Shown: one piece after another, positions 1-17,535 of the stretch
How positions within the stretch are numbered: position 1 is the first letter of the stretch
Layout: each line of letters starts with the position of its first letter
NCBI GenBank assembly: GCA_041659405.1
Contig: JBAZYK010000007.1
Location: 1 to 32,000 of the forward strand
Origin: Candidatus Altimarinota bacterium
Lineage (GTDB): Bacteria; Patescibacteriota; Gracilibacteria; UBA1369
Length of the DNA: 32,000 bases
Direction: 5' to 3'
Made by a program: the position numbers and the translations under genes
The notes under the pieces: model-generated
What the model was told of the DNA's origin: nothing
Database searches by the model: none
Seen by the model: the letters and a program-made list of their open reading frames with translations, nothing else

Positions 1-56
1 AGGATAACTTTAAGTTTGAACGCTCCATCGTACTGTTTCCGTATACCTTTTGGCAT
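1..56 (-). CDS. Partial 5' end of an IS3-family-like transposase OrfA (HTH N-terminus); gene runs off the left edge
   Basis: Minus-strand ATG at 56-54 followed by MPKGIRKQYDGAFKLKVI. The basic stretch plus Y-x-x-x-F-K-L-x-V pattern is typical of IS3/IS911 OrfA N-termini. Only 18 codons are visible and the ORF is not in the track. Confidence 0.35.
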   Translation of the reverse strand, partial: MPKGIRKQYDGAFKLKVI

Positions 57-166
57 AATTTTTGGGGTTAAAAACCTCTCTTAGCATACCCCATTTTTCT
101 GTCCGATTTTGCGGGACCATTATAGAAAGTCTATTTTTCTTATAATGTAATGGGGCAATATTAATA

Positions 167-221
167 TGCTACAATAACTCTGATCAGTTTAGAAAAGGTA
201 CTAGAACCGACTGGTCAGCCA
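167..221 (+). promoter_or_regulatory. Conserved promoter-plus-leader block, copy A (extended -10 TGCTACAAT at 167-175; conserved motif 180-221)
   Basis: Near-identical to blocks at 1199-1253 and 5508-5561, with 16 nt between the -10 and GAAAAGG in all three. The motif CTGATCAGT...GAAAAGGTACTAGAACCGACTGGTCAGCCA can fold as a 9-bp stem enclosing a GGT/ACC mini-hairpin. It lies 44 nt upstream of the Mrr-like ATG. Confidence 0.6.
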
Positions 222-264
222 GAACGTACTCCGTCCCGATAAAAAGATAGATGATATTGTTACT

Positions 265-1164
265 ATGACTTATAGCCGAAAAAAGTATCAGGATCTTTCC
301 CAAAAGAATCAGAATTTAATGTCATCCCACAAAAAAATTCAGCTTTATAATTTACGAAAAAAGTATGGATGGGTGCCTTTAAAAATAGCCCATTTATTAT
401 ATGATTTTGGGTTTGATCAGGCTAAAATTGAAGAAATTGAAATTTTTGATCAAAACATTCAACTTAAAAACCAGGAAATTCATACTGAAGCCCAACGGTT
501 AAATGGAAAAAGAACAATATTGATACATAGGTTTTTATCTTTGTTGTTCTTCCCTTTTGCCATCTTAATTATATGGATATTGTTTGTTTCGGGCTGGGGT
601 ACATGGATTCCTGTTGTAATATTTGTTTTGATTTCAATATTTATTAACAAGGAGGATTTTTTAGGAAATTTTGTTTCTAAGAAATATCATTATAATCTAT
701 TGCCTCAACACAAATTATCTACTGATTTGGAAAAATATAAACAAGCAGTTAGGGACAATGTATTATTCGAGCAACTTTTAGAAGAAGAGCGTAAAGATAA
801 AATAGAAAGGTCCAAGAGAGAGTTTTGGTTTTCCTTAAATGGATTCGAATTTGAAAATCAGATGGCTAAATTATTTAGAAAAAATGGTTATAAAGCAGAT
901 GTAACAAAGCGTACTGGTGATGGTGGAATAGACATAAATCTTTACGATGAAAATGGGTTTAGGACTATTGTTCAATGTAAAGCCCACAAAAAGGCGATAG
1001 GGCCTCATGAAGCTAGAGCTATTTATGGCTTGATGTCATCTGAGAATGCTCCAAAGGCTATTTTGATAAGTTTGGGAGGTTTTACTCAGGGCGTGAGGGA
1101 TTTTGTTAAAGAAAAGAATATAATTTTGATGGATATAGAGGATGTCATGGAACTGGGATTTTGA
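265..1164 (+). CDS. Membrane-anchored Mrr-like (Mrr_cat, PD-(D/E)XK) restriction endonuclease domain protein
   Basis: 299-aa ORF. Hydrophobic helices in the middle (FLSLLFFPFAILIIWILFV, WIPVVIFVLISIFI). C-terminal core FEFENQMAKLF...GDGGIDI...IVQCK matches the Mrr catalytic-domain pattern (D...Q/E-x-K). Confidence 0.75.
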   Translation: MTYSRKKYQDLSQKNQNLMSSHKKIQLYNLRKKYGWVPLKIAHLLYDFGFDQAKIEEIEIFDQNIQLKNQEIHTEAQRLNGKRTILIHRFLSLLFFPFAILIIWILFVSGWGTWIPVVIFVLISIFINKEDFLGNFVSKKYHYNLLPQHKLSTDLEKYKQAVRDNVLFEQLLEEERKDKIERSKREFWFSLNGFEFENQMAKLFRKNGYKADVTKRTGDGGIDINLYDENGFRTIVQCKAHKKAIGPHEARAIYGLMSSENAPKAILISLGGFTQGVRDFVKEKNIILMDIEDVMELGF

Positions 1165-1198
1165 TAATTAAAAAAATACATGTTCCATTTTGCCAAAC

Positions 1199-1253
1199 TG
1201 CTATAATAACGCTATCCAGTCCAGAAAAGGTACTAGACCCCACTGGTCAGCCA
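1199..1253 (+). promoter_or_regulatory. Conserved promoter-plus-leader block, copy B (TGCTATAAT at 1199-1207; motif 1216-1253)
   Basis: Same block as 167-221 and 5508-5561: ...CCAGTCCAGAAAAGGTACTAGACCCCACTGGTCAGCCA. Followed by an A7 run and a GC-rich hairpin. Confidence 0.6.
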
Positions 1254-1487
1254 AAAAAATGGCTCCGAGCAGAGCTCGGGGACAGTTTTTTGAATTTGGG
1301 TATAGAGCGGAGTCGAAGTTTACACCCGGAGGGTGAATCCCTCATCCCCAGCCAACAGATTTGCGGAGCAAATCCGGACCCGCCTTGGCGGGTCCAAAAA
1401 CAAACGTTTGCGAAGCAAACACATTTTATAGAAGAGCGGATGAGAAGTTTATCCCCCGGAGGGGTAAATCCCTCGTTACTTTTTTTC
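1214..1487 (+). ncRNA. Candidate structured non-coding RNA locus (hairpin array); ends are approximate
   Basis: The predicted start lies just after the -10 at 1199-1207. Consecutive GC-rich hairpins sit in an AT-rich context:
- 1263-1270/1274-1281 (loop AGA);
- long imperfect hairpin 1305-1343 (inner CACCC-GGA-GGGTG);
- 1358-1374 (GATTTGC-GGA-GCAAATC);
- 1376-1395 (GGACCCGCC-TT-GGCGGGTCC);
- 1406-1420 (GTTTGC-GAA-GCAAAC);
- a second copy of the long hairpin at 1434-1474 (inner CCCC-GGA-GGGG), followed by a T run at 1480-1487.
The overlapping 109-aa TTG-start ORF looks like a by-product of these hairpins. Confidence 0.45.
1263..1291 (+). terminator. Terminator/attenuator-like hairpin inside the ncRNA locus
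   Basis: 8-bp stem CTCCGAGC/GCTCGGGG with AGA loop, then ACAG and T6 (1286-1291). An A7 run (1253-1259) lies upstream. It would yield a ~78-nt RNA from the copy B promoter. Confidence 0.4.
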
Positions 1488-1502
1488 TAAATTAACGTTA
1501 TA

Positions 1503-1524
1503 CTTACTGCGCAGTAAGATTTTT
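1503..1524 (+). terminator. Intrinsic-terminator-like hairpin upstream of the 1537 gene
   Basis: Perfect palindrome CTTACTGC|GCAGTAAG (1503-1518) followed by ATTTTT. Confidence 0.45.
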
Positions 1525-1536
1525 AACCCAAATAAT

Positions 1537-2007
1537 ATGTTTAAAAAAACAGGTCTTGCTATGATTACCGCCTTATTGGTAGGTGGATTGGTTTTCGGGG
1601 GATGCAGTCAACAAAATCCGAGCAATCCTTCAGAAAATTCTACAACAAATGTTCAGTCAAACAATGAGGAAAATTCAGTGAAAGTTGATGAGAATTCAAC
1701 CATAACTTCTAAACCGAACACATCAGGAGCTGAGGACACCAAAAGTTCCGTGGCAAAAGAAATAAAAGCTGCATTTCAAAATATATATTCGAATTCAGAT
1801 TTTTCTAATCAAACCGTGACTGTAGAAATGCTCAGCGGTGTCTATGCCAAAGGTGGGATCCCCACCTTAGACAATGGTGACGGTGACTGGGCATGGTTTG
1901 CGAAAAAAGTTGATAGCGTCTGGACAATCGTAGCTGATGGACAATACATTCAATGCCCGGGATTGGATGAGTTCCCGGCGGAATTCAAAACCGGGGTCTG
2001 TGATTAA
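1537..2007 (+). CDS. Secreted/putative lipoprotein, function unknown
   Basis: 156-aa ORF. N-terminal signal-like helix ending LVFGGCSQ (weak lipobox), then a low-complexity Ser/Asn/Glu linker. Confidence 0.65.
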   Translation: MFKKTGLAMITALLVGGLVFGGCSQQNPSNPSENSTTNVQSNNEENSVKVDENSTITSKPNTSGAEDTKSSVAKEIKAAFQNIYSNSDFSNQTVTVEMLSGVYAKGGIPTLDNGDGDWAWFAKKVDSVWTIVADGQYIQCPGLDEFPAEFKTGVCD

Positions 2008-2021
2008 TCTGAAAATATAGA

Positions 2022-2053
2022 CTAAAAGGATTCGATCCGACTGGCAATTACCA
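2022..2053 (+). repeat. Degenerate fourth copy of the leader motif core
   Basis: CTAAAAGGATTCGATCCGACTGGCAATTACCA versus AGAAAAGGTACTAGAACCGACTGGTCAGCCA. It shares AAAAGG, a mini-hairpin (GGAT-TCG-ATCC here), GACTGG and a terminal CCA. No -10 element or 5' stem partner is present. Confidence 0.3.
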
Positions 2054-2056
2054 AAA

Positions 2057-2085
2057 AGCCCATCTTGGAAGACGGGCTTTTTTTA
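2057..2085. terminator. Bidirectional rho-independent terminator between convergent genes
   Basis: Stem AGCCCATCTT/AAGACGGGCT (one mismatch, GG loop) flanked by A5 upstream and T8 downstream. It serves the + lipoprotein gene and the - HU gene. Confidence 0.7.
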
Positions 2086-2132
2086 TTGTTAAGTTGATGG
2101 TCGATTCCCTTTTCCCTTTTGAGGATTTTGAA

Positions 2133-2411
2133 CTACTTACGAACAGCATCCTTAAGAGATTTGCCAGCCTTGAAAGCAGGGAGCTTCATAGCTGGGATTT
2201 TGATTTTCTGGCTTGGGTTACGTGGATTTACACCAGTGCGGGCAGCGCGCTTTGAAATACGGAATGTGCCGAAACCGGTTACTGTTACGTTTTCACCCTT
2301 TTTGAGAGACTTGGTGATGCTTTGGAGTACAGCTTCGAGAACATCGGAAGAAGCCTTTTTTGTTACGCCGCAAGCTTTAGCTGCAGCATCGACGAGATCT
2401 TGCTTGGTCAT
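2133..2411 (-). CDS. hup: HU-family DNA-binding protein
   Basis: From the internal ATG at 2411: MTKQDLVDAAAKA...GFGTFRISKRAARTGVNPRNPSQKIKIPAMKLPAFKAGKSLKDAV, the classic HU/IHF signature. The track start at 2486 adds 25 implausible residues. Confidence 0.9.
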   Translation of the reverse strand: MTKQDLVDAAAKACGVTKKASSDVLEAVLQSITKSLKKGENVTVTGFGTFRISKRAARTGVNPRNPSQKIKIPAMKLPAFKAGKSLKDAVRK

Positions 2412-2487
2412 TGCTATTTTGATTAAAAAATAAAATAAACCGGATTCAGTATATGATTTTTGAAGGAAAATGCAAGTATTCTGCATA

Positions 2488-2518
2488 CAGGAGGCTTTTT
2501 AAAAGCCCCCGCCTCCTG
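2488..2518 (-). terminator. Hairpin downstream of the 2523 gene (weak terminator candidate)
   Basis: Perfect 8-bp stem CAGGAGGC/GCCTCCTG, with a nested alternative GGCTTTT/AAAAGCC. There is no clear U-tract on the minus strand. Confidence 0.3.
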
Positions 2519-2522
2519 CCAC

Positions 2523-4408
2523 TTACTTTCTAGCCGTAGGGCTGTAAATAAAGGGGGATCCGATGATTATTCGCTGCAGAGGTCCGCTTAATTTATATAG
2601 ATCGAGTATCTGACCCGGTGGGTTTTCGGGGGCACTCGTATTTGGCGCGACTTGAGTAGACGCATTTGATGGTGTGATGATCGGGGTCGGTACTTGGGTT
2701 GGTGTTGGCTGGAAGTAAGCAGCAAAATCATGTTGAACATTTAACCACGCTTCTCCAACATATTGGCCCTTATTATAATACTTGAAGAAATTGGTTTGAT
2801 TATTTACAAACCAGCCGCAATCCGGACAATTTCCGGAATAAACATCTATATCGTTTGAATCTAATTTACTCAGGAAAGATAGGCCCAGGTTCTTACCATT
2901 TATAAACGCCAGAACTATAGAACCTTTTACGTTCTCTATAAAATTTCCGTTAGCGCAACCCCAGGTGAGCATGAAAACGGGCAAGTTAGCAAGATTGGAA
3001 AAGTCACTTGCGGTTAAACCCCAAACCACAGTCGGGTCTCCGTGAGAATGCAAATAAGCTACCTCCGGACCTTTAGCTAATTCCGCAAGAAGAGCTGCCT
3101 TAAAAGGAGCAAGGTTATCGACGGCATCCGGCGTGATATCTATAGAATTTTCTGTTCCATAGACAGTTAGTCCAAGATTAGGAATGGACAAATAATGATT
3201 AGGGCCTGGATATGGGACATGTACAGCCGATACCGCCCACTTTGCGGGCACGGTTTGTTTAGTGAAAAATTATGATGCTTCTGGAAGTAAGCTCTTAATT
3301 GATTGATATGATTGTTGAGATCTGTCGCCGGAAAGGTTGATTTTATCCAACCGGTATATATTTCAGGTCCTCCATGTGCGCCATAACTATCATAACCATA
3401 ATAATGCCCCAAGTTATTTTGCTTAAAGCTGGCATCAAGATCCTCATAAAAGTACATAAAAGGCGCCAAATGATTGCTATCAAAGGGCTGTTCATACAAG
3501 GCGTAAGGAATATCGCCGACAAAAACAGCTCCACCTAAATTAAGGCAACCGCTACTATCAGGTTGGCATTCTTTGATGAGCAAATTCCTGATATCAAGCG
3601 GCGTGTAGGTTATTGAATTCTGAAGTTGAATTACGTCTACTTTGATTCCCAAGTTAGCGAAGACATCATTTTGAAAATTATCTACCTCCGGCTTTAAAGC
3701 GTCGTAAACGTTTTTGTAAATTATGACAACGGCTCGTTTGTTTACGTTATCTATCTGCAGTGCATTGTAAATCAGTTGTGCCAATTTCCCGCGAGTCATT
3801 CCCTGGTTCGGGAAGATGCTATTTTGACTGTCAGGTATCAACCATTCCAGATTTTTGCCATATTGAACATATTGTGTGTACCATTGGTTGGTAAAGGCAT
3901 CAGTATAAGGATTTTCAGGAACTGCCACATGCGAAACATCAACGTTTCCTGCCTTAATTAACATTTTTAAATTTTCCACCAGATTTACAGTTTGTTCTGG
4001 TTTAAAAGTTCCATCCGGATAGCCGCTGATTATTCCTAAAGCGGTAGCTTTATTTAAATATGGATAATACCAGGCATTCCAATCTTTTACGTCTTTGAAG
4101 TCTGCGTTTGAACCGCTATCAATTGCCGGTTGTCCTTGGATTTTAGATGCTCCAAGAATTATTTTTAAAGCTTCCGCACGGTTAACAATCCGGTTTGGCT
4201 TAAAAGTTCCATCAGGGTATCCGGAAATTATTCCCTTTGCTTGAAGGAACATAATCTCTGTGTAGTATGGGTTGGTTTTAGGAACATCGCTAAAACCTGT
4301 GCCCGTATCAATAGCAAAAACACTTTGCATTTGAGAAACTAAAATAAGGCCGGTTAAGATTGCCCCAACAATTGCGCCGCCGGATACTATTGGACGAGTT
4401 GTTTCCAT
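2523..4408 (-). pseudogene. SLH-domain surface protein with a C-terminal clan-CD (gingipain/caspase-like) cysteine peptidase domain, split by a frameshift
   Basis: ORF 3167-4408 has a signal/TM segment and three SLH-like repeats (FSDVPKTNPYY...GIISGYPDGTFKP, FKDVKDWNAWYY...GIISGYPDGTFKP, TDAFTNQWYTQY...). ORF 2523-3251 continues in the -1 frame with an 85-nt overlap and carries YLHSHG and MLTWGCANG (candidate His/Cys dyad). The second frame opens right at an A5/T5 homopolymer (3266-3270). Confidence 0.6.
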
Positions 4409-4497
4409 ATTCGGAAAATTAAGATGTATTTTTGTTTAGTTTAAGCTGTTTTGATTTTACGACATCTATGTTTGAATTGCCAGAGGGGGAACCTTTC

Positions 4498-5418
4498 CTA
4501 AGCCGTCGCTATCCTCAAATACCTCAAAATATCATACGGCTCATTTGCCGGGACTACGCGGTTATTTGTTGAAGTCGTTGTTGGTTCTTCCGAAATAGCT
4601 GTGTTTTTTCGTGCTACTTTTTCCGGAGAAAGTCGGAGGAGGCGATCAAGATACTTTTTTTCAGGCATGCCATAAACGGCGTAAATGGCGCGGCAACCAT
4701 ATCTTTCTGCCAGCGCGATGTCTTTTTTAGGGTTATCACCGATGATCAGGACCTGACGTGCAATTTGATCGAGTGTCATTTGAAGAATCGTTTCAAGATC
4801 GGAATCCGGTTTTTCTACCGGGGTTACGAATGTTGGAAAATCCACATCATAGAGCCCAGCTTCCTGTCGTTTCTGAAATTTTTCCGGTAAATCCTGAATA
4901 TCAGAATCCGCCATGGCATAAACACCTTTAATGAACGGATCAAGTTTGAAATACCTAACCCGCATTGTAGCCTGAAATTTCGGGGCATCGGTTATGATAC
5001 TAATGCGCTTTCCACATTCATGCAGGGTTTGGATGACTTGTTCCATTCCCTTGTAAATGTGCAGGTATTTTCGTCTTGCTTCGGTAAAAGCGTTTTGAAC
5101 TTTATCAACAAGTTCATTACGATTAAAATTTGGAACTGATTTAAAAAATCCAGCGGCTTCCAGGCCCTGTATCAGACCTCTGTGTTCCATAGTTCCCGCT
5201 ATGGTATAAAACTGCTTCATGGCGGCAGCTACTTCCGGTTCAGGCCTTTTAGACTCATCTGCAATACATTGAGCCATTGCGTCGTAACCATGCGCGGCAT
5301 AAGTCACCCAGTCCCAAATGGTGTTATCTCCATCAAAAACGACATCAGTTATTTCCGTCATAACTTCCGGACCCAAGGCATCATAATTTGGTTCAGTTGG
5401 AGGAGTTTCCATAGTCAT
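4498..5418 (-). CDS. HAD-superfamily hydrolase
   Basis: 306-aa ORF with motif I FDGDNTIWD (DxDxT), ITDAP (motif II-like) and GDNPKKD (motif IV). Confidence 0.8.
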   Translation of the reverse strand: MTMETPPTEPNYDALGPEVMTEITDVVFDGDNTIWDWVTYAAHGYDAMAQCIADESKRPEPEVAAAMKQFYTIAGTMEHRGLIQGLEAAGFFKSVPNFNRNELVDKVQNAFTEARRKYLHIYKGMEQVIQTLHECGKRISIITDAPKFQATMRVRYFKLDPFIKGVYAMADSDIQDLPEKFQKRQEAGLYDVDFPTFVTPVEKPDSDLETILQMTLDQIARQVLIIGDNPKKDIALAERYGCRAIYAVYGMPEKKYLDRLLRLSPEKVARKNTAISEEPTTTSTNNRVVPANEPYDILRYLRIATA

Positions 5419-5507
5419 AAATTTGGTAGCATTCGGCCTTCATAGTATCGCGAAGTGCTTCTTTTGCAAGCTGAAAGGCGCCATTGAACTGTCTCGTTTT
5501 GTAATTC

Positions 5508-5561
5508 TGCTATAATGAGCCCGATCAATCTGGAAAGGTATTAGACCCGACTGGTCAGCCA
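5508..5561 (+). promoter_or_regulatory. Conserved promoter-plus-leader block, copy C (TGCTATAAT at 5508-5516; motif 5522-5561)
   Basis: ...CCGATCAATCTGGAAAGGTATTAGACCCGACTGGTCAGCCA. Same spacing and 3' half as copies A and B. It lies ~150 nt upstream of the first gene of the Z1/Dcm/HNH operon. Confidence 0.6.
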
Positions 5562-5572
5562 ATGATAGAAAA

Positions 5573-5648
5573 GAGGGTGAGAAATTTATACCCCGCAGCA
5601 AAGCGAAGGGGGAAATCCATTATCCTCCAGCTAAAAATTGAGGATAAT
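5573..5648 (+). other. Leader hairpin module plus 9-bp hairpin in the 5' UTR of the Z1/Dcm/HNH operon
   Basis: GAGGGTGAGAAATTTATACCCC...GGGGGAAATCC (5573-5618) resembles the long hairpin modules at 1305-1343 and 1434-1474. It is followed by the perfect stem ATTATCCTC/GAGGATAAT (5619-5627/5640-5648), which shares its CCTCC with the module's closing stem, so the two folds are alternatives. Confidence 0.35.
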
Positions 5649-5706
5649 AGTTAATCTAGATTCTTTCTGGTAAGATGTTAGTGTGTTTTAGTCAGATTGT
5701 TTTTAT

Positions 5707-6138
5707 ATGATGGACAAATCTCATTACTATCATGGTGCTGCCGTTGTTTCTTTGTTGGAAAACGAGAATGACTTTTCCATAAGCAAGAAAGGGTTTTTGG
5801 GTTATGTTGTGAATGATAAAATTTTTATTTTTCTGAAGTATACAACTAAAGCAAGAACGCCTTGGAGATTCACTTTTGATCAAGAAGACATTGATCGCTG
5901 CTTAAAGATGTCATCAGAATATAATGATGTTGCTGTTGGCTTGATTTGCGGAGGTGATGGGATTTGCGGTTTAAAATGGAATGAGGTGCGATGTCTTTTA
6001 GAAGATAAGCCCGGTTGGATATCCGCAAAAAGAAAACATAATGAAAGTTATGGCGTTGCTGGTTCTATCACTGAACTAGAAAAAAAAGTGCCTGTTGGTA
6101 GATGGTCAATTTTTATTTCTGAAATGATAAAGAATTAA
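5707..6138 (+). CDS. Hypothetical protein, first gene of the Z1/Dcm/HNH operon
   Basis: 143-aa ORF (MMDKSHYYHGAAVVSLLENEND...KYTTKARTPWRFTF...). I recognise no motif. Its stop lies 10 nt before the next start. Confidence 0.6.
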   Translation: MMDKSHYYHGAAVVSLLENENDFSISKKGFLGYVVNDKIFIFLKYTTKARTPWRFTFDQEDIDRCLKMSSEYNDVAVGLICGGDGICGLKWNEVRCLLEDKPGWISAKRKHNESYGVAGSITELEKKVPVGRWSIFISEMIKN

Positions 6139-6148
6139 TATTATATTT

Positions 6149-8161
6149 ATGGAAACAAATCCAAGAAAAATAATTCATGATGGACAACAAACTAATGAGG
6201 CATTAGATGTGCTTGAAGTCGAAATTGGAAATCGACAGTCGCTTCATGCTATCGCCGAGAGGGCGGGCAGGATTTTGGAATATGCAGTTGACCCAGTCGC
6301 TGGTTCGACAGAACCAAGCTACGGACTCCTTTATGGCTTGATTCAAAGTGGGAAAACGAGTGTGATTACTGTGACGGCAGCAATGGCTGCTGATAATGGT
6401 TTTAAGTGCATTATTATACTCACTTCGGATATCAATCTTTTATATGGTCAAACACTTCAACGCATTCGTAGTCAGCTTCGCGGACTAACAGTCCTTGGTA
6501 AGTCCGATTGGGATGACCATTCTCGGTTTGAGCGGCAATTAAGAATGTCACCATTCGCAATTGTTTGTTCCAAAAACTCAAGTCATCTTAAAAATCTTAT
6601 CGATGCTTTCAAGAAAGTTGGTTCTAGTGGGGCTCGTGGTTTAGCTACTTTGATTATTGATGATGAAGCTGATCAGGCCAGTTTGAATACTAACACGCAG
6701 AAAAATGCAAAAAAGAGAACTGAGGAAATTAGTGCTATTAACAAGTACATCACCGAACTTAGACAATTTTTTCAGATTAACACGTATCTGCAAGTGACTG
6801 CGACACCCCAAGCACTGTTTTTGCAGAGACCAGATGGTTTGTACCGTCCATCTTTTACAGTATTAAGTGAGCCGGGTGCAGGTTATGTAGGAGGAGAAGC
6901 ATTCTTCGAATCTGAATCAAAACTTTTACGATACACTAATCTGGATGAGGTTGATGAACTGAAGTCTGGCTATCAGCCAAATCCAACACACAAAATCCCT
7001 GTTGGATTGAGAGATTCCGTTTTGAGTTTTCTAGTTGCTGCGACTGCAAGAAATATAAATTATCCGAGCGAAAATTTTTCGTTTCTTTGTCATATCAGTC
7101 ACACTAAAATCGATCATAAGCATGTAGTTAGTCTAATTGATTCATTTAGGGAAGACACTATAAACGCGTTTAGAGATAAGAAATCATCTGCTTTTGAGAA
7201 GTTAAAGAAAGATCTGTTTATGGCTTATGAGGATATTTCTAAAACTGAGCCCGTGATGCCTGAATTTGAAAAAATTCTCGAACGAATTGAGTTCTTGTTG
7301 CGAGGTGCAAGCATAAAAGAAATTAATTCGAATTCGGATGAGGCGGTGAAGCCAGATCATGTGTATAGTATTTTTGTCGGTGGCAACAAACTTGGAAGAG
7401 GCGTGACTATTCCTAATTTGATTACCAGTTATTACGGAAGAAATCCGAAACGACCTAATTCTGACACTGTACTTCAGCACGCTCGTATGTATGGTTATAG
7501 AGAAAAGCATGTTGGGGTTACTCGCTTGTTTCTTCCGGAAAAATTGGCCGAACATTTTCGTATAATTCATCAGATGGAAAAAGCTCTGCGAGAATTGGTG
7601 AGTAAATACCCGGAAGGGAAATTTGAAGGTATTTATTTGTCATCCCCGATGAAGGCAACTCGATCTAACGTTTTGGATCCGAATTCTATTGGCGTTTATA
7701 TTGCTGGCGGATGGGTGAATCCAAGATATCCACTCAGAACCAAAGAGATTTTGCCAGTAACTGAATGGCTCGATGAGAAGTTTGTCGCTTATGATAACGC
7801 AAATGAATATTTCGAGACTGACATTGACTCAATCATAGAGATAATACAAAAATGCAAACATGACCCTGATGAAGGGGCTGAGTTGTGGAATCCTAAGACT
7901 TTGGGGGCGGCACTCGAGAAAATAAAAACTCTAAAAGGTTCTAGGGCATATATACGGGTTCGACGTGGTAACGATCTTAATGCGCCTCGTCGCGAAACTC
8001 AAGGGTTTTACTCTGGTGGTGAAGATAAACTGGTACCCGAAGATGCTGTAACTCTTTTCATGTATCGGTTGAAAGAAAGTCATCGAGGTGAGCCTGTATG
8101 GTTACCCCAACTTCGCTTTCCTGAAGGTAATTATGCGATCGCTTTTAGTTTTGAAGATTAA
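6149..8161 (+). CDS. Z1-domain protein with an N-terminal P-loop/DEAD-like NTPase
   Basis: 670-aa ORF. Walker A GLIQSGKTS, Walker B-like LIIDDEADQAS and a TATPQA motif. The C-terminal segment GGNKLGRGVTIPNL...DTVLQHARMYGYR matches the Z1 family signature (GG.KLSRG.T.EGL...DTL.Q..RWFGYR) as I remember it. Confidence 0.75.
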   Translation: METNPRKIIHDGQQTNEALDVLEVEIGNRQSLHAIAERAGRILEYAVDPVAGSTEPSYGLLYGLIQSGKTSVITVTAAMAADNGFKCIIILTSDINLLYGQTLQRIRSQLRGLTVLGKSDWDDHSRFERQLRMSPFAIVCSKNSSHLKNLIDAFKKVGSSGARGLATLIIDDEADQASLNTNTQKNAKKRTEEISAINKYITELRQFFQINTYLQVTATPQALFLQRPDGLYRPSFTVLSEPGAGYVGGEAFFESESKLLRYTNLDEVDELKSGYQPNPTHKIPVGLRDSVLSFLVAATARNINYPSENFSFLCHISHTKIDHKHVVSLIDSFREDTINAFRDKKSSAFEKLKKDLFMAYEDISKTEPVMPEFEKILERIEFLLRGASIKEINSNSDEAVKPDHVYSIFVGGNKLGRGVTIPNLITSYYGRNPKRPNSDTVLQHARMYGYREKHVGVTRLFLPEKLAEHFRIIHQMEKALRELVSKYPEGKFEGIYLSSPMKATRSNVLDPNSIGVYIAGGWVNPRYPLRTKEILPVTEWLDEKFVAYDNANEYFETDIDSIIEIIQKCKHDPDEGAELWNPKTLGAALEKIKTLKGSRAYIRVRRGNDLNAPRRETQGFYSGGEDKLVPEDAVTLFMYRLKESHRGEPVWLPQLRFPEGNYAIAFSFED

Positions 8162-8163
8162 TT

Positions 8164-9210
8164 ATGAAAATTGAAAACAAAAAACTTACTGCAATAGATC
8201 TATTCTCCGGTTGTGGAGGATTAACTCTAGGTTTAAAACAAGCTGGTTTTAATGTGATTGGTGCCGTTGAAATAGATTCTCTTGCTGTAGAAACTTATCG
8301 GGTCAATCATTCTAAAGTAAATATATGGCACAAAGATATCAGAAAATTAACTGGTACAGAAATACTTGAAAAGCTCAAATTAAAAAAAGGCGAACTTGAT
8401 TTATTGGCTGGATGCCCACCATGCCAAGGATTCTCTTCAATGAGAACTCGTAATGGTAAAGAAGTGAAAGACGCAAGAAACGATCTTATTTTTGATTATT
8501 TAAGATTAGTGAAAGAACTGCTTCCAAAAACAGTCATGATGGAAAATGTTCCTGCTTTGGCTGAAAATCGAAGAATGAAAAGGTTTAAAAAAGAACTGGA
8601 GGATTTGGGATATGAATCAAATGGCACTCCACTTGTTCTTAATACTGCTCATTATGGTGTGCCTCAACGTCGACGAAGAATGATATTAGTCTCTAGTCGT
8701 GTCGGAAAGATTAATTTACCAGAAGGAACTGCTGAAAAAGTTACAGTAAGCGATGCGATTGGTGGTATGCCTCGTCCTGGTGAAACAGGAGATCCTTTGC
8801 ATGATATAAAAGAAAAGAGAACTCCTAAGGTTTTAGAAATGATAAAGCTGATTCCTAAGGATGGAGGAAGTAGAAGTGATCTTCCCAAACGTTTGCATTT
8901 GGAGTGTCATAAAAAATTCCCTGGGGGCTTTAAAGATGTTTATGGAAGAATGGCGTGGAAGAATGTTTCTCCTACCATAACTGGTGGCTGCATAAGTCCT
9001 TCGAAAGGACGTTTTCTCCATCCTTCACAGAATCGTGCAATTACTCTTCGTGAAGCTGCGCTTTTACAAACTTTCCCAAAAGATTATTATTTTTCTCTTA
9101 AAAAAGGTAGGCAGGGTGTTGCTTTGATGATAGGGAATGCTTTACCTCCAGAGTTTATTAAACAACATGCCATTGCTATAAAAAAATCTCTTTTGAAATT
9201 ATATTCATGA
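8164..9210 (+). CDS. dcm: DNA (cytosine-5)-methyltransferase
   Basis: 348-aa ORF with motif I DLFSGCGG, motif IV GCPPCQGFS, motif VI ENVPAL, motif VIII QRRRR, motif IX REAALLQTFP and motif X GNALPP. It starts 2 nt after the Z1 stop. Confidence 0.92.
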   Translation: MKIENKKLTAIDLFSGCGGLTLGLKQAGFNVIGAVEIDSLAVETYRVNHSKVNIWHKDIRKLTGTEILEKLKLKKGELDLLAGCPPCQGFSSMRTRNGKEVKDARNDLIFDYLRLVKELLPKTVMMENVPALAENRRMKRFKKELEDLGYESNGTPLVLNTAHYGVPQRRRRMILVSSRVGKINLPEGTAEKVTVSDAIGGMPRPGETGDPLHDIKEKRTPKVLEMIKLIPKDGGSRSDLPKRLHLECHKKFPGGFKDVYGRMAWKNVSPTITGGCISPSKGRFLHPSQNRAITLREAALLQTFPKDYYFSLKKGRQGVALMIGNALPPEFIKQHAIAIKKSLLKLYS

Positions 9211-10223
9211 TTGATAGATCGGTAATCATTGGAAATCTTACTTGGAATGCTGCAGGGTGGACTAATGCCTATGTAAATCCCAAGGCAGGGCATGTTTATG
9301 CAAGAAGTCATGCAGGGCATGAATCATTGAATTTTAAGTTTGATAAAAAAAATCTTGATGAAGAGGATTCTGTTTATGGCTTCTTACAGTGGACAAATCC
9401 GCCAAAGGACTTTGGTAATGGGGGTATTGTAGTCTTTTCGAGCAAGAATTCGGTAAACAACAAGAATTTGATTGTTGGAATATATTGTGACGTGAAAATA
9501 TTATTACCGCCTGTTGAAACTCTTTACGAAGGCTTTGAGGATGGTGTTTTAGCTTCCAATCTCCGAGCAAAAAGGGCTCTTTCTATGCGTTTTCCGCAAG
9601 AACTGGATTTGGAAAAATATTTGGGTGGGAAAAAGCGGGTGGGCCAAATTGGGTTTCTTCTTTCAGATGTCGATGTGGCAAAACAGGTAATAGTTGATGA
9701 GATTCAAACTCTTTCTATCTCTGGACTCAAATCGAATGATGCGAAAAAACTTGGTGATATTTATAAATTTATTACTGGTGAGGAATATAATTTTGAAAAT
9801 TTTAAAAACCGTGATGAACAGGAACAAAAAGAAATCGAAGAGAAAATAAAAACTGATTCTGAGGCTGATGATGCCAGGTATTTTGCTAATCTTTCACCTG
9901 TTGAGCCTGAAATGATTGAGTTGAAAGGGAAGATGTATAAAAGAGATAATGTAACTATTTCTCGCCTCAAAAGAGCCAGAGGTTATAAATGTCAGATATG
10001 TGGTTACTTTGTTTTAAAAAGGAATGGTGATCGTTATATTGAAGCGGCTCATATCAAGGCAAAGTCACAGAAAGGAAATGAGATGCCAGACAATATTATT
10101 ATTTTGTGCCCGAATCATCATAAAGAGTTTGATTATGGTGAATTAAAGATTAACGAGCAGACGAAGGATAGTATTTTGTTTCGTCTTAATTCAAAAGAAT
10201 ATTCTATTAACTTAATGGTGTAA
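9207..10223 (+). CDS. HNH endonuclease with a ~250-aa uncharacterised N-terminal domain
   Basis: 338-aa ORF. Its ATG overlaps the dcm stop (ATGA). C-terminal CQICGY...EAAHIKAKSQKGNEMPDNIIILCPNHHKEFD is an HNH (beta-beta-alpha-Me) motif. The N-terminal part (...GFLQWTN...GGIVVFSS...LIVGIYCDVKIL) matches no family I recognise. Confidence 0.8.
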   Translation: MIDRSVIIGNLTWNAAGWTNAYVNPKAGHVYARSHAGHESLNFKFDKKNLDEEDSVYGFLQWTNPPKDFGNGGIVVFSSKNSVNNKNLIVGIYCDVKILLPPVETLYEGFEDGVLASNLRAKRALSMRFPQELDLEKYLGGKKRVGQIGFLLSDVDVAKQVIVDEIQTLSISGLKSNDAKKLGDIYKFITGEEYNFENFKNRDEQEQKEIEEKIKTDSEADDARYFANLSPVEPEMIELKGKMYKRDNVTISRLKRARGYKCQICGYFVLKRNGDRYIEAAHIKAKSQKGNEMPDNIIILCPNHHKEFDYGELKINEQTKDSILFRLNSKEYSINLMV

Positions 10224-10268
10224 ATGGGTGTTAGATCCTACCCCCCAGCCAAAATTTCCCCCTTCCCC

Positions 10269-10649
10269 ATGAACCAATCCAAACTTTCTATCATTATCAA
10301 CAAATCTTTGGCGGAGGTTTTTGAGTTTGTTATCAATCCAAACAATACGCCTTTGTGGTTTGATTCCATTGTTAAAGAGGTTGCTGATTTGCCGATTGCG
10401 ATGGGGACAAAATATGTGAATTTTAATGCGGCCGGGCAAAAAGGGGAGTATCTTGTTTCGAAATTTGAACCTGATGCGATTTTTCAGCTCGACTCGGTCG
10501 ATTCCGGTTATAAGGTCCGCTATACCCTGAAAGCAATTTCCAAAAATGAAACCGAGCTGGAATATTTGGAGTGGGTCGATTTTGGTGACCTGGAAGCCCC
10601 TTGCGCGATAAATGTTCTTCAGGGATTGAAGAATGTTTTGGAGGGGTAG
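10269..10649 (+). CDS. SRPBCC (START/polyketide-cyclase-like) family protein
   Basis: From the internal ATG: MNQSKLSIIINKSLAEVFEFVINPNNTPLWFDSI..., typical of the N-terminal strand-helix of SRPBCC proteins. The track start at 10224 adds a Pro-rich tail encoded by a C-tract. Confidence 0.55.
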   Translation: MNQSKLSIIINKSLAEVFEFVINPNNTPLWFDSIVKEVADLPIAMGTKYVNFNAAGQKGEYLVSKFEPDAIFQLDSVDSGYKVRYTLKAISKNETELEYLEWVDFGDLEAPCAINVLQGLKNVLEG

Positions 10650-12319: not shown

Positions 12320-12400
12320 AATGCAAATATATGATTATCCTTAATATTAGCATAAATTAGCCGTAAAAACAAAGTTCCATTTTGGATCATTTTGCAAATC

Positions 12401-12409
12401 TGCTACAAT
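12401..12409 (+). promoter_or_regulatory. Extended -10 promoter element TGCTACAAT
   Basis: Same TGCTAYAAT element as in the three leader blocks, but without the downstream motif. It sits 34 nt upstream of the ATG at 12443. Confidence 0.4.
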
Positions 12410-12963: not shown

Positions 12964-12985
12964 TTAGCGCATCGTTCCCATAAGT

Positions 12986-13003
12986 TCCATCGAATTCGAT
13001 GGA
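12986..13003. repeat. Perfect 18-nt palindrome TCCATCGAATTCGATGGA (copy 1, intergenic)
   Basis: Read directly. The identical 18-mer recurs at 14304-14321 inside the KilA-N gene. Confidence 0.9.
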
Positions 13004-13004
13004 G

Positions 13005-13070
13005 TTTAAGTAGAATTTAGATTTTGTTAATGGTGATGTGAAATTATAGAAATGTTTATTCTATAATTTC
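13005..13070 (+). repeat. Duplicated upstream block, copy 1 (precedes the DinD-like gene)
   Basis: TTTAAGTAGAATTTAGATTTTGTTAAT is identical over 27 nt to 14026-14052. The next ~39 nt match at about two-thirds identity. The block starts 72 nt before the ATG at 13077. Confidence 0.85.
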
Positions 13071-13724: not shown

Positions 13725-14030
13725 ATGACTATCGAAACAACTCCAAATAATATTAAAAATGGCGAAACTAAGACATCGTCAGCCAAAAATGTAGAGCAAG
13801 TAGCGGTTGAGGCAATTGAAAATATAGCCTCAATATCTCGTGTGGCGATTGATGCAATTCGCAAAATTACGGAATTGACCAGCACGCCGGAAGTACCTAT
13901 TTCTGGTGTGAGTGAAGCGAGCTCATCTATTCAGCATGGCGCGACGGAAAAACCGCGATGGTTTTGTGTGACGGCACGAGGAATCGCGATTAGATACCAA
14001 GGAGAGATCCAGGAAATTCGTGAAATTTAA
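13725..14030 (+). CDS. Hypothetical protein
   Basis: From the internal ATG: MTIETTPNNIKNGETK.... The track start at 13656 lies within a T-rich terminator-like region. I recognise no motif. Confidence 0.45.
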   Translation: MTIETTPNNIKNGETKTSSAKNVEQVAVEAIENIASISRVAIDAIRKITELTSTPEVPISGVSEASSSIQHGATEKPRWFCVTARGIAIRYQGEIQEIREI

Positions 14031-14091
14031 GTAGAATTTAGATTTTGTTAATCACGATCTGAAATTATGGAGATACTTATCTCTTAATTTT
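14026..14091 (+). repeat. Duplicated upstream block, copy 2 (precedes the KilA-N gene)
   Basis: Same 27-nt core as 13005-13031 plus a related ~39-nt tail. It starts 74 nt before the ATG at 14100 and overlaps the stop codon of the 13725-14030 ORF. Confidence 0.85.
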
Positions 14092-14099
14092 TTAATTGC

Positions 14100-14924
14100 A
14101 TGACTATTATACAAAAAATAACAGTTAAGGGGACTGAAATTGTAATTTTTAAACAAAGTGAAAATGATTACATTTCATTGACCGATATTGCTCGTTATAA
14201 AGATCCTGAACGAAGTGACTATATTTTGCAAAACTGGATGAGAAGCAGAGCTACTATTGAGTTTTTAGGCTTATGGGAGAGAATTAACAATCAGACTTTT
14301 AATTCCATCGAATTCGATGGAATTAAAAATGAATCTGGACTGAATAGCTTTTTTCTTAGCCCAAAGCGTTGGATTCGAGCTACCAATGCTATTGGCATTA
14401 TTTCGCAAACTGGTCGATATGGCGGCACCTTTGCCCATAAAGACATTGCTTTTGAGTTTGCGACTTGGCTTTCGCCTGAATTTAAGCTTTATTTGATCAA
14501 GGAATTCCAACGACTCAAAGAGGAAGAAAATCAGCGTCTTAACCTTGGTTGGGACATTAAGCGTAATTTGGCGAAAATTAATTATCGTATTCACACAGAT
14601 GCTATCAAAGAGTATTTGATTCCGGCTCATCTTTCCGCTGCTCAAATTAATATTACTTATGCCAGTGAGGCCGATGTTCTTAACAAGGCGCTTTTTGGTC
14701 TGACGGCTAAAGAGTGGCAAACTGCCAATCCAAAAGAGGATGGTAATCTGCGCGATCATGCTTCTGTGGTACAGCTGGTTTGTTTGACAAACCTGGAGTC
14801 ATTAAATGCCGTGTTTATTCGCCAAGGGCTTGTTCAAAAGGAAAGATTGATTCAACTAAATGAAGTCGCGATTGTACAGATGCGCTCGCTTGTTGGAAAT
14901 CCCACTATTAAAAAATTAAAGTGA
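14100..14924 (+). CDS. KilA-N domain-containing protein
   Basis: 274-aa ORF ...YISLTDIARYKDPERSDYILQNWMRSRATIEFLGLWERINN...GRYGGTFAHKDIAFEFATWLSPEFKLYLIKEFQRLKEEE, the conserved KilA-N family pattern. Confidence 0.85.
   Translation: MTIIQKITVKGTEIVIFKQSENDYISLTDIARYKDPERSDYILQNWMRSRATIEFLGLWERINNQTFNSIEFDGIKNESGLNSFFLSPKRWIRATNAIGIISQTGRYGGTFAHKDIAFEFATWLSPEFKLYLIKEFQRLKEEENQRLNLGWDIKRNLAKINYRIHTDAIKEYLIPAHLSAAQINITYASEADVLNKALFGLTAKEWQTANPKEDGNLRDHASVVQLVCLTNLESLNAVFIRQGLVQKERLIQLNEVAIVQMRSLVGNPTIKKLK
14304..14321. repeat. Perfect palindrome TCCATCGAATTCGATGGA (copy 2, extends to 24 nt at 14301-14324)
   Basis: Read directly. It encodes NSIEFDGI within the KilA-N gene. Confidence 0.9.
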
Positions 14925-16332: not shown

Positions 16333-17535
16333 TTAGTTGTCGCTGTTGTCATTGGCAAGTGCCTTGGCAAGTTCTTTTTGTTCAGTTTCAACACTTTTCA
16401 TCATAGCTTTTAGGTTGGTTTTCATATCTTTGATCATCTTGCTTGTGATCTTGGAAGTTTTAGCTTTTGTCATAAGTTTGATCAAAGCCTGTCTTCCATT
16501 ACATTGATCAGGGACATTACCTGACGCGTCTGCTTCATCCATTTCAAGGCCAAGAATATCACAGGCCTCGGAAAGACTCATTGCTACAACACTTAAAGGG
16601 TAAAGTAATGTTTTGGAAGAAATTATTCTGTTTACTTTAACGACAAGAGCTTTCAGATCTTTAATATCCTGATCACTAATTGAAGTGTCGGTGATATTTA
16701 GATCCTTGGGAACTGCAAACTTTTGACCTTTAGCCGGTTGGATATACGAGAAGTTGAAATTGTTATTAGGCTGACCGGGTTGACCAGGCTGGCCGGGTTG
16801 TCCAGGTTGGCCGGGTTGGCCAGGTTGACCGGGTTGGTTCGGTTGGTTTGGGTTGAATTGACCGCCGGGCTGACCAGGTTGACCTGGTTGACCAGGTTTG
16901 AATTGACCAGGCTGACCGAATTGATCGCCAGGTTGACCGGGTTGATTTGGCTGATTAGGGTTGAATTGATAAGGTTGATTGCCACCTTGTCCGAAACCGG
17001 GACCATTACCATTCTGACCGGAGCCAGGGTTGAAGCCTTGGCCTTGGTTAGGACCGCCATTACCTCCGTTTTTTTGGTTTATGTCATCAGGACCTATGCC
17101 CGAACAAGTGCCTGGACCTGTACCGCAAGAACCTGGAGCACCATTGAAACCTGGCTGACCGGGGTTGAATTGACCAGATTGGTTAGGTTGTCCGAATTGA
17201 CCACCGGGTTGACCAGGGTTGAATTGATTAGGTTGATTTGGCTGGTTTGGTTGATTAGGACCGAATTGACCAGGCTGATTAGGTTGGTTCGGTTGACCAA
17301 ATTGACCGCCAGGTTGACCGGGTTGCATATTACCGCCTTGATCAGGGATACCGACGCCTCCTGCGCCACCGGGAACTTGTACGTTTTGTCCTTCATCTGG
17401 TCCGCTCATAGCAACCAGATTTGCACTTCCACTATTATGGAGCGCTGAAACTGAAAATGATACACCACCGACTACTACTGTTGCGGCAAGCAATGCCATT
17501 GGCAGATAGTAGAAGAGTTTGTTTTTATTTTCCAT
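16333..17535 (-). CDS. Secreted low-complexity Gly/Pro/Gln/Asn-rich protein with a collagen-like (GQP)n tract
   Basis: 400-aa ORF with an N-terminal signal/TM helix. About 210 residues consist of [10 protein letters not shown]-type repeats and a run [22 protein letters not shown] (G-X-Y triplets). The C-terminal ~140 aa are non-repetitive. Confidence 0.75.
16770..17403 (-). repeat. Coding tandem/low-complexity repeat region (9-nt GGYTGNCCN periodicity on the + strand)
   Basis: Visible as ctgaccgggttgaccaggctggccgggttgtccaggttggccgggttggcc.... It explains the long spurious ORFs in the other frames. Confidence 0.85.

Follow-up and report, generated by a model that had tools for sequence, protein, structure and literature searches.

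We identified, in a 32,000-nt stretch of DNA from Candidatus Altimarinota bacterium (GenBank assembly GCA_041659405.1, contig JBAZYK010000007.1, positions 1 to 32,000 of the forward strand; hereafter the window), a family of short repeats that resemble the 3' end of a tRNA, often carry a promoter-like segment, and end in CAGCCA, the six bases that also end tRNA-Gln. We favor, with about even confidence, the reading of this repeat block as a cassette-borne attachment arm that mimics tRNA-Gln, bears an outward promoter, and has its target recreated by each insertion. The evidence consists of the copies themselves, their common strand, a sharp 3' boundary, linkage to tRNA-Gln, and, in close relatives, one cassette flanked by direct repeats. 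The element is so far limited to one narrow lineage, and we found no description of such an element in the literature.

The window holds three copies of a 25-mer, GGTAYTAGAMCCSACTGGTCAGCCA, at 197-221 (copy A), 1229-1253 (copy B), and 5537-5561 (copy C), all on the + strand. A search allowing up to three mismatches gave no other match in the window and none in 100 dinucleotide-preserving shuffles, and near-identical copies behind the extended -10 element TGCTAYAAT are expected zero times by chance. That element lies upstream of each copy (167-175, 1199-1207, and 5508-5516), with 16 nt between it and GAAA(A)GG and with copy C shorter by one base overall, in agreement with an earlier reading made from this sequence only, which had described three direct copies of a promoter-plus-leader block with identical internal spacing. 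Copy A occupies 167-221 (TGCTACAAT at 167-175, the 5' strand CTGATCAGT at 180-188, and the 25-mer with its terminal CAGCCA), and nothing upstream of its -10 element is homologous to the other copies. Copies B (1181-1253) and C (5490-5561) have in common a promoter spacer of ~21 nt (CATTTTGCCAAAC and CGTTTTGTAATTC, respectively), followed by TGCTATAAT at 1199-1207 and 5508-5516; a terminator-like hairpin with a T run (1263-1291, + strand) lies immediately 3' of copy B. The same spacer recurs at 12388-12409 (+ strand, CATTTTGCAAATCTGCTACAAT) with small open reading frames (ORFs) downstream, extending the lone -10 element reported at 12401-12409 to a shared spacer plus -10, again without the tRNA-like motif. 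In the copies at L003/L006 (we designate loci other than the window by L numbers) the spacer contains TTTTGCAAAA, a perfect palindrome, and the spacer at window 12388-12409 reads TTTTGCAAAT.

Two further members in the window are promoterless and diverged. Copy D (AAAAGGATTCGATCCGACTGGCAATTACCA, 2022-2053, + strand), earlier seen as a degenerate core, abuts a terminator that it shares with the HU gene; its orthologs in L004 and L010 are intact and promoter-bearing, and the one in strain contig L096 is similarly decayed. Element E (ATGGGTGTTAGATCCTACCCCCCAGCCA, 10224-10251, + strand), which the sequence-only reading missed, matches the motif at 19/28 positions and tRNA-Gln at 17-18/28, and is placed after the stop codon of the HNH gene and before position 10269, where the next gene probably starts. 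Gene callers read element E as the N terminus of a 141-aa ORF; we regard it as intergenic because the NCBI and JGI proteins start at 10269.

The family totals about 21-23 members, from the window and from metagenome contigs of close Peregrinibacteria relatives only: a scan of JGI metagenomes yielded nine real loci with the motif, and looser searches and later loci supplied further members. An exact-pattern scan returned no matches in GTDB representative genomes and none in IMG/VR, and a profile built from 14 copies found no match in 80 HU loci of related genomes. The full form, ~95 nt long, reads CCTTTTTATAC-TGTCTCA-TT-TGTCTCA-TTTTGCAAAAC-TGCTAYAAT, followed by 21 variable nt and GGGTACTAGACCCGACTGGTCAGCCA, with an alternative -10 element (GGTATACT) in some copies; like D and E, the copies at L001 3248, L002, and L106 are promoterless. 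On the right, homology always stops at GCCA; on the left the edge is ragged, falling ~70, 45, 30, or 0 nt before the 25-mer begins. Paralogs and genomes show almost no variation in the 25-mer itself, in contrast to the 21 nt that separate it from the -10 element, which vary freely. Copy D is at consensus in L004 and L010, where the HU DNA differs from that of the window by only ~10%. Because the orthologous copy D has decayed in two strains (window and L096) while copies A, B, and C stay at consensus, the pattern points to base-by-base constraint on the 25-mer, presumably selection, or else to recent spread or repeated renewal.

The connection to tRNA-Gln begins with a decayed gene that had also been overlooked, a 58-nt tRNA-Gln remnant at 1297-1354 (+ strand). 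Both acceptor strands (TGGGTAT and ATCCCCA) survive, followed by G and CCA, but the D and anticodon arms are partly gone and the T-stem lacks its 5' side; over positions 1335-1356, which take in the final 20 nt of the remnant and 2 nt beyond, the sequence is 22/22 identical to the tRNA-Gln(CUG) 3' end of L002 (blastn-short, E = 2e-6). ARAGORN called no tRNA anywhere in the window, this remnant included, and Rfam gave nothing relevant and no tRNA match, either at gathering thresholds over the whole window or at E <= 10 over positions 1-6000. The sequence-only reading had likened the motif, with its invariant CCA, to an acceptor/T-arm minihelix, and this likeness is borne out: compared with tRNA 3' halves, the final 28 nt of the motif agree at 16-17/28 positions, and tRNA-Gln, too, ends in CAGCCA (acceptor end, discriminator G, and CCA). 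The 3' halves of tRNA-Pro, tRNA-Asn, and tRNA-Arg score as well as that of tRNA-Gln, so the likeness is generic to the T-arm and acceptor, and CAGCCA alone is Gln-specific. Descent of the 25-mer from tRNA-Gln specifically was considered and dropped on account of these equal matches. In total, the window has six tRNA-Gln-like ends (A, B, C, D, the decayed tRNA-Gln, and E), all on the + strand, and among relatives the motif has a tRNA-Gln gene no more than 5 kb away in L002, L006, L007, and L106.

A second repeat, which we call family 2, looks derived from the inner part of tRNA-Gln, judging by its sequence. It occurs on the + strand at 1302-1353, 1427-1481, and 5565-5631 (nhmmer, E = 1e-16 to 3e-11) and has the form GAGCGGA-GAGAAGTTTAYMCCCC-loop-GGGGTAAATCCCTC; the copy at 5565-5631 starts 3 nt past copy C and ends in CCTCCAGCTA. 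We see this family only in the window organism and its strain variant L096 (1644-1698), whose contig breaks within one family-2 copy.

The most informative junctions come from L106 and L107, which carry a homolog (75% identical) of the 126-aa gene that starts at 10269 in the window. The gene order there is guanylate kinase, tRNA-Gln, one SLH-domain gene, a promoterless motif, and the ATG of the 10269 homolog. With a slash marking the junction, the tRNA-Gln side reads ...CCCCAGCCA/AATTTGTATT (in fuller form, AATTTGTATTATATTG after the slash) and the motif side ...GGTCAGCCA/ATTTGTATT (in fuller form, GGGTACTAGACCCGGCTGGTCAGCCA/ATTTGTATTTGAAAC). In L106 the direct repeat CAGCCA(A)ATTTGTATT thus encloses the SLH gene together with the first 19-20 nt of the motif; the two sites match at 9 of the 10 bases after CCA, and 0 of 248 unrelated site pairs reached 8. 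Because direct repeats flank both gene and arm, the usual logic makes the motif arm part of the inserted DNA and CAGCCA the shared core, and we infer site-specific recombination at CAGCCA. The position of element E is occupied by motif copies, consensus-like or diverged, in L106, L107, and L108: where the window has element E, in front of the 10269 gene, L106 carries a consensus-like motif and L108 a diverged one. Upstream of this site lies the SLH gene in L106 versus a 143-aa ORF and the Z1, Dcm, and HNH genes in the window; L108 offers too little sequence to compare. In L006 the order is SSB gene, guanylate kinase gene, tRNA-Gln, a gene for a 425-aa protein, an SF1 helicase gene, a full promoter block, and a glyoxalase-like gene, so that a tRNA 3' end and a same-strand repeat bound the segment in both L106 and L006; of the tRNA boundary, the window has only the decayed tRNA-Gln.

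Within the window, the Mrr-type nuclease gene (265-1164) lies between A and B, its coordinates confirming the bracketing by direct repeats described before; D and the decayed tRNA-Gln flank the small lipoprotein-like gene (1561-2007), and C and E flank the Z1/Dcm/HNH genes (within 5707-10223). Same-strand arrays of 2-3 copies with single ORFs between them occur in the window, L001 (units at 2890, 3248, and 5014), L009 (8492 and 8974), and L108, and single-ORF units that each end in a repeat on the same strand are seen in the window (A-Mrr-B and lipoprotein gene-D), L001, L009, and L106. L007 has two copies 144 nt apart with no ORF between. We also observe, at L001 2885-2951 and L002 8062-7987 (- strand), diverged tRNA-like units in gene-free tandem (...CAGCCA/ATAGGGATTAGAACCC...AACTGGTAAGCCA/...), an arrangement that would be the expected residue of serial recombination at one core.

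We propose that small gene cassettes lacking an integrase enter either at the 3' terminus of a tRNA-Gln gene or at a block that is already in place, with the last six bases, CAGCCA, common to tRNA-Gln, serving as the junction. The 19 bases before CAGCCA would be carried by the cassette and would imitate the tRNA T-arm and 3' acceptor strand; insertion would bring this arm up against the host flank, at the distal end of the cassette, and leave a fresh ...CAGCCA/ target, allowing cassettes to build up head to tail in short arrays. In the long form (~70-95 nt), the extended -10 promoter, whose activity is predicted, would read outward over the junction, transcribing downstream DNA from the chromosome and the cassette's own gene in an excised circle. 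The window segments would then be A, Mrr, and B; the decayed tRNA-Gln, the lipoprotein gene, and D; and C, Z1-Dcm-HNH, and E. The expected circle junction would join the CAGCCA of B to GAACGTACTCC, the expected empty sites would join the CAGCCA of A to AAAAAATGGCTCC and that of tRNA-Gln to ATTTGTATTTGAAACATG, and the recombinase would act in trans.

Several results weigh against this cassette reading. The co-orientation of the blocks with downstream genes and the start codons 17-45 nt away fit a plain promoter with a leader equally, and a simple -35/-10 promoter scan did not list the block sites, whose -35 is weak. Repetition beyond CAGCCA is significant at the L106 locus only; downstream of it, adjacent site pairs in the window resemble each other no more than random pairs do. 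No empty site was recovered for the window cassettes, so their mobility is presumed, and the flank bearing the 10269 gene, found in L106, L108, and the window, was never met without an insert. Finally, we found no recombinase among the scanned window ORFs and listed gene calls, nor beside most copies, and profiles of the recombinase arms X and Y described below matched neither the window nor any of ten further loci from the lineage, nine of them motif-bearing.

The lead to an enzyme comes from L002. A large serine recombinase gene there has an 86-nt leader that follows the CAGCCA of a consensus motif, and beyond the gene's other side an inverted, identical copy of these 86 nt follows a real tRNA-Gln. 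These joins identify ...CAGCCA/ as a junction used by a recombinase system, at which the motif can replace tRNA-Gln. Since the arm profiles found nothing elsewhere, L002 is the one locus that links the cassettes to a serine recombinase. The family of this recombinase (~487-513 aa) is very common in the candidate phyla radiation, and we located it at L002 6197-8013, L099 49-1849, L100 315-6542, L101 3744-5533, and L102 3825-5528, as well as in L103, L104, and L105. The layout is the same beside tRNA-Gln in L099, L100, and L105 and beside tRNA-Gly (Gly-GCC) in L101 and L102. Where computed (L002 and L099-L102), inverted repeats of 92-97 nt and 99-100% identity flank the recombinase gene, and their outer 6 nt are the last 6 nt of the tRNA; decayed T-arm/acceptor-like sequence stands before the opposite arm. 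A further perfect inverted repeat in L100, 226 nt long and nested, meets at the same CAGCCA, and in the 512-513-aa members the ORF runs antisense through the entire tRNA, giving a C terminus ...WLGRRDSNPR.... In L103 and L104 a recombinase arm abuts an 18-nt tRNA-Gln 3' fragment: L103 3176-3435 (- strand) comprises an intact tRNA-Gln, a terminator, ~190 nt, an 18-nt copy of the tRNA's own 3' end with one mismatch, and the recombinase arm, the fragment being by its sequence a putative classical duplicated att fragment. No description of this recombinase-tRNA inverted-repeat architecture was found in the literature. Among the scanned window ORFs, the listed gene calls, and the flanks of L001, L006, L009, and L011, no Pfam recombinase domain turned up, the rest of the genome being unsearched, and no integrase gene lies inside the window, L006, or L106 segments; of the motif-bearing loci, L002 alone has a large serine recombinase. 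The serine recombinase beside tRNA-Gln in relatives is at most a candidate for the cassette enzyme.

The genes beside the copies are accessory in type and diverse. Downstream of copies we find the Mrr gene, the Z1/Dcm/HNH genes, two small lipoprotein-like genes (N termini judged by eye; no Pfam match), a small membrane protein gene, the first gene of a membrane-bound [NiFe] hydrogenase cluster, a glyoxalase/PhnB-like gene, a Bro-N gene, and a gene for a ~557-aa Cys-rich protein; some copies have only a terminator or a convergent gene downstream. Neighbors in nine loci include a hydrogenase subunit, cyclases, a methyltransferase, HU, an HD-domain protein, a helicase, and others, with no transposase. 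The block is therefore not defense-specific: because the same block precedes unrelated accessory genes or a terminator alone, a defense-gene regulon is not the common thread, and the suggestion that a shared leader coregulates the defense genes finds no support in that form among the relatives, where blocks precede the hydrogenase cluster, lipoprotein, glyoxalase-like, or Bro-N genes, or a terminator. As side observations, Cys-rich paralogs (~557-559 aa) adjoin motif copies at L001 3312-4985, L002 4007-5683, and L010 738-2417, those of L001 and L002 having no Pfam match; and group-4-type membrane-bound [NiFe] hydrogenase genes start right after a promoter block in L009 (8492-12685) and end right before a block in L001 (174-2914). 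L001 and L009 are nonoverlapping loci of the same 100.9-kb contig, and the hydrogenase cluster may itself be bracketed by blocks.

An alternative that we consider possible, although on the unlikely side, is a portable promoter with a cis-acting, tRNA-like 5' leader that functions at the RNA level. Transcription would start ~7 nt past TGCTAYAAT and give each RNA a 5' acceptor/T-arm-like minihelix ending in G-CCA, which tRNA-processing enzymes or another protein would bind, or which would protect the 5' end, setting mRNA processing or stability; proximity to inserted genes would be secondary, for example if integrases target the block as they do tRNA genes. The extended -10 element, the strand shared with the downstream gene, and the start codons 17-45 nt past CCA in many copies agree with a leader, as does the terminator that alone follows some copies and would yield a ~80-nt small RNA. 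A run of at least 5 pairs to GACTGGTCAG exists within 22 nt upstream in 14/14 copies versus 52% of random 22-mers, the 5'-strand variants GAUCA, GACCA, GGCCA, and GGUCA pair with UGGUC or UGGCC if wobble is allowed, and the base-by-base invariance of the 25-mer suits an RNA recognized by a protein. The structural predictions are less favorable. The terminal stem proposed for all three blocks holds in copy A (9-10 bp; minimum free energy -13.1 kcal/mol, z = -2.7), whereas B (z = -0.45) and C (z = +0.35) fold no better than shuffles; across copies, the outer stem shifts its pairing register and is only modestly above chance. Covariation in the inner hairpin is not significant (1 compensated pair, with 112-135 of 500 shuffles reaching the observed values), RNAalifold prefers another helix inside the invariant 25-mer (covariation term +0.15, 0 compensated pairs), and a T-to-C change in L108 is uncompensated, all in keeping with the caveat on compensatory covariation given from the outset. 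The leader matches no Rfam family and leaves the tRNA-Gln linkage, the L106 direct repeat, and the L002 junction unexplained. The two roles are compatible, and a promoter-driven tRNA-like element could serve both as attachment site and as RNA. If the blocks were instead stand-alone genes for a ~45-nt, trans-acting, tRNA-Gln-like mini-tRNA with incidental read-through, one would expect units such as promoter-motif-terminator alone, which do occur in L004, L010, and window copy B, and the potential U1-A72 pair, G73, and CCA are as in the tRNA-Gln acceptor end; many copies are promoterless, however (D, E, L001 3248, L002, and L106), an ORF directly follows most copies with no terminator, neither ARAGORN nor Rfam recognizes the sequence, and covariation is lacking, making this improbable.

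A shade less probable still is a DNA operator downstream of the promoter, through which one transcription factor would coregulate a regulon. Base-by-base conservation without covariation is what an operator would show, the near-palindromes CTGGTCAG and, in copy A, CTGATCAG have centers 31 bp apart, and TGTCTCA occurs twice upstream in long forms; yet promoterless copies retain the 25-mer, the upstream half-site is poorly conserved, the downstream genes have no functional theme, and a CAGCCA boundary common with tRNA-Gln goes unexplained. The sequence-only reading had also offered solo terminal repeats of an IS3-like element (inverted TGGCTGACCAGT... ends) with an outward promoter, pointing to the minus-strand start of the block, TGGCTG, and to an IS3-like OrfA start 165 nt from copy A. 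The contig does break at this OrfA, but we consider the reading very improbable. The window copies all lie on the + strand with no inverted partner, there is no transposase beside the copies examined in L001, L003/L006, L004, L007, L009, L010, L011, L106, and L108, and copy A alone lacks the shared upstream part, which fits an IS landing in the block. The idea fails because no examined copy elsewhere, of ~20, adjoins a transposase; what stands of it is a mobile-element end with an outward promoter, given that the L106 motif lies in inserted DNA. The OrfA start itself (MPKGIRKQYDGAFKLKVIL..., 1-56, - strand) runs off the window and was recognized by reading the sequence, the fragment being too short for family models; it looks like an unrelated insertion that cut off the upstream part of copy A.

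Among known systems, the element is closest to the att repeats of tRNA-linked genomic islands, and its organization is closest to integron attC arrays. tRNA-linked islands integrate at the 3' end of tRNA genes, are bounded by att direct repeats, and accrete in tandem. As in such islands, accessory and defense inserts here sit beside a tRNA gene with the junction at its 3' end, same-strand tRNA-like 3'-end repeats bracket the inserts, and decayed tRNA fragments gather. In contrast, the repeat here is a distinct, conserved imitation that shares only CAGCCA with the tRNA (plus 9 bases once) and often has its own promoter and 5' complementary strand, and the inserts comprise 1-4 genes without an integrase. 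With integron attC sites, especially the highly uniform ones of chromosomal integrons and those of integrase-less attC clusters, the family has in common the one-strand arrays of single-ORF units, a conserved 30-95-nt repeat that is imperfectly self-complementary and has a fixed 3' core, and a recombination site that travels at the cassette 3' end. It differs in lacking RYYYAAC and GTTRRRY boxes (the aligned copies run from (C)TGATCAGT to ACTGGTCAGCCA), in the absence of any IntI-type integrase among the scanned window ORFs and the flanks of L001, L006, L009, and L011, and in being anchored at a tRNA gene rather than attI, in arrays of only 2-3 units in which the site supplies the promoter of the next unit.

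Mobile promoters offer a further comparison: Matus-Garcia et al. in 2012 reportedly described putative mobile promoters as near-identical promoter segments upstream of nonhomologous genes. Here too, one promoter-bearing segment precedes unrelated genes within a genome and in close relatives; unlike those segments, it has a defined junction, a tRNA-Gln link, and promoterless forms, and the L106 copy lies at the far end of the insert. For the attB and attP sites of large serine recombinases, partial half-site similarity is expected and 2-bp identity is needed. The joining of the L002 leader after CAGCCA to either tRNA-Gln or the motif resembles such sites, whereas recombinase and arms went undetected in the window and other motif-bearing loci, and the L106 direct repeat (15/16) exceeds 2-bp identity. 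Finally, like the tRNA-like minihelices of viral 3' tRNA-like structures and the MALAT1 small RNA, the element has an acceptor-like stem hairpin and an NCCA tail that tRNA-processing enzymes could read; unlike them, it would stand at the 5' end of bacterial mRNAs, lacks covariation, and appears conserved as DNA, in the manner of an att site.

The HU gene (2133-2411, - strand; Pfam Bac_DNA_binding) provides a conserved flank for finding orthologous loci, and its best match, 93% identical, places the organism among Peregrinibacteria/Peribacteria (titled "Candidatus Gracilibacteria" or Peregrinibacteria at NCBI). The 126-aa protein gene (10269-10649, + strand; weak DUF3284 match) is the conserved flank downstream of element E, and an identical protein is WC843_03950 of an NCBI metagenome-assembled genome. 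Exact-protein look-ups with Mrr, HU, a HAD-family hydrolase (4498-5418), and a trpGD-like protein mostly returned the identical arrangement, the exception being the short contig L096. The window forms one end of its 89-kb source contig (ENA ERZ27249449), which stops 16 nt to the left. The Mrr gene is on the + strand and is assigned by Pfam Mrr_cat (E = 1e-25), its stretch having a G+C content of 32% versus ~40% elsewhere; the lipoprotein-like gene (+ strand) has an N terminus of that type by eye and no Pfam match; and 5707-10223 (+ strand) comprises four genes, the 143-aa ORF, a Z1-domain protein, a C5 cytosine methyltransferase (Dcm), and an HNH nuclease (Pfam Z1, DNA_methylase, and HNH_2). 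On the - strand, 2523-4408 holds overlapping ORFs of 242 aa (no Pfam match) and 413 aa (SLH domains), which may be one gene split by a frameshift. A separate repeat family with the palindrome TTCCATCGAATTCGATGGAA occurs at 12985-13069, 14006-14090, and 14297-14339, around Bro-N and KilA-N genes, and this stretch looks like a mobile-element remnant. Long arrays with a 9-nt period (CCAGGTTGA and CCGGGTTGG) at 16766-17325, within the - strand ORF 16333-17535, encode a collagen-like repeat protein rich in Pro, Gly, and Gln.

In bacteria of the candidate phyla radiation, with genomes of ~1 Mb and few recognized mobile elements, little is understood of how defense and surface genes are gained and shuffled; a conserved, promoter-bearing tRNA-end mimic at cassette joints would be a searchable marker of such gene flow in this lineage, and the 25-mer is a probe for variable regions and for finding the recombinase. 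If the leader reading were true, the blocks would instead represent a rare instance of bacterial mRNAs that mimic tRNA at their 5' end. If the cassette model is true, the arrays would represent a third route to array formation, distinct from integrons and from classical tRNA-linked islands, in which the site also solves expression. More tentatively, since we hold it clearly less likely than not to be the whole picture, the system may amount to an integron-like gene collection anchored at tRNA-Gln, its cassettes captured at ...CAGCCA/ by a trans-acting recombinase, perhaps a large serine recombinase, and its arms renewing the target and supplying the promoter. Such cassettes would be mostly single-gene units for defense and the cell surface, with perhaps the hydrogenase cluster among them, and every unit of the array would be expressed, unlike in classical integrons.

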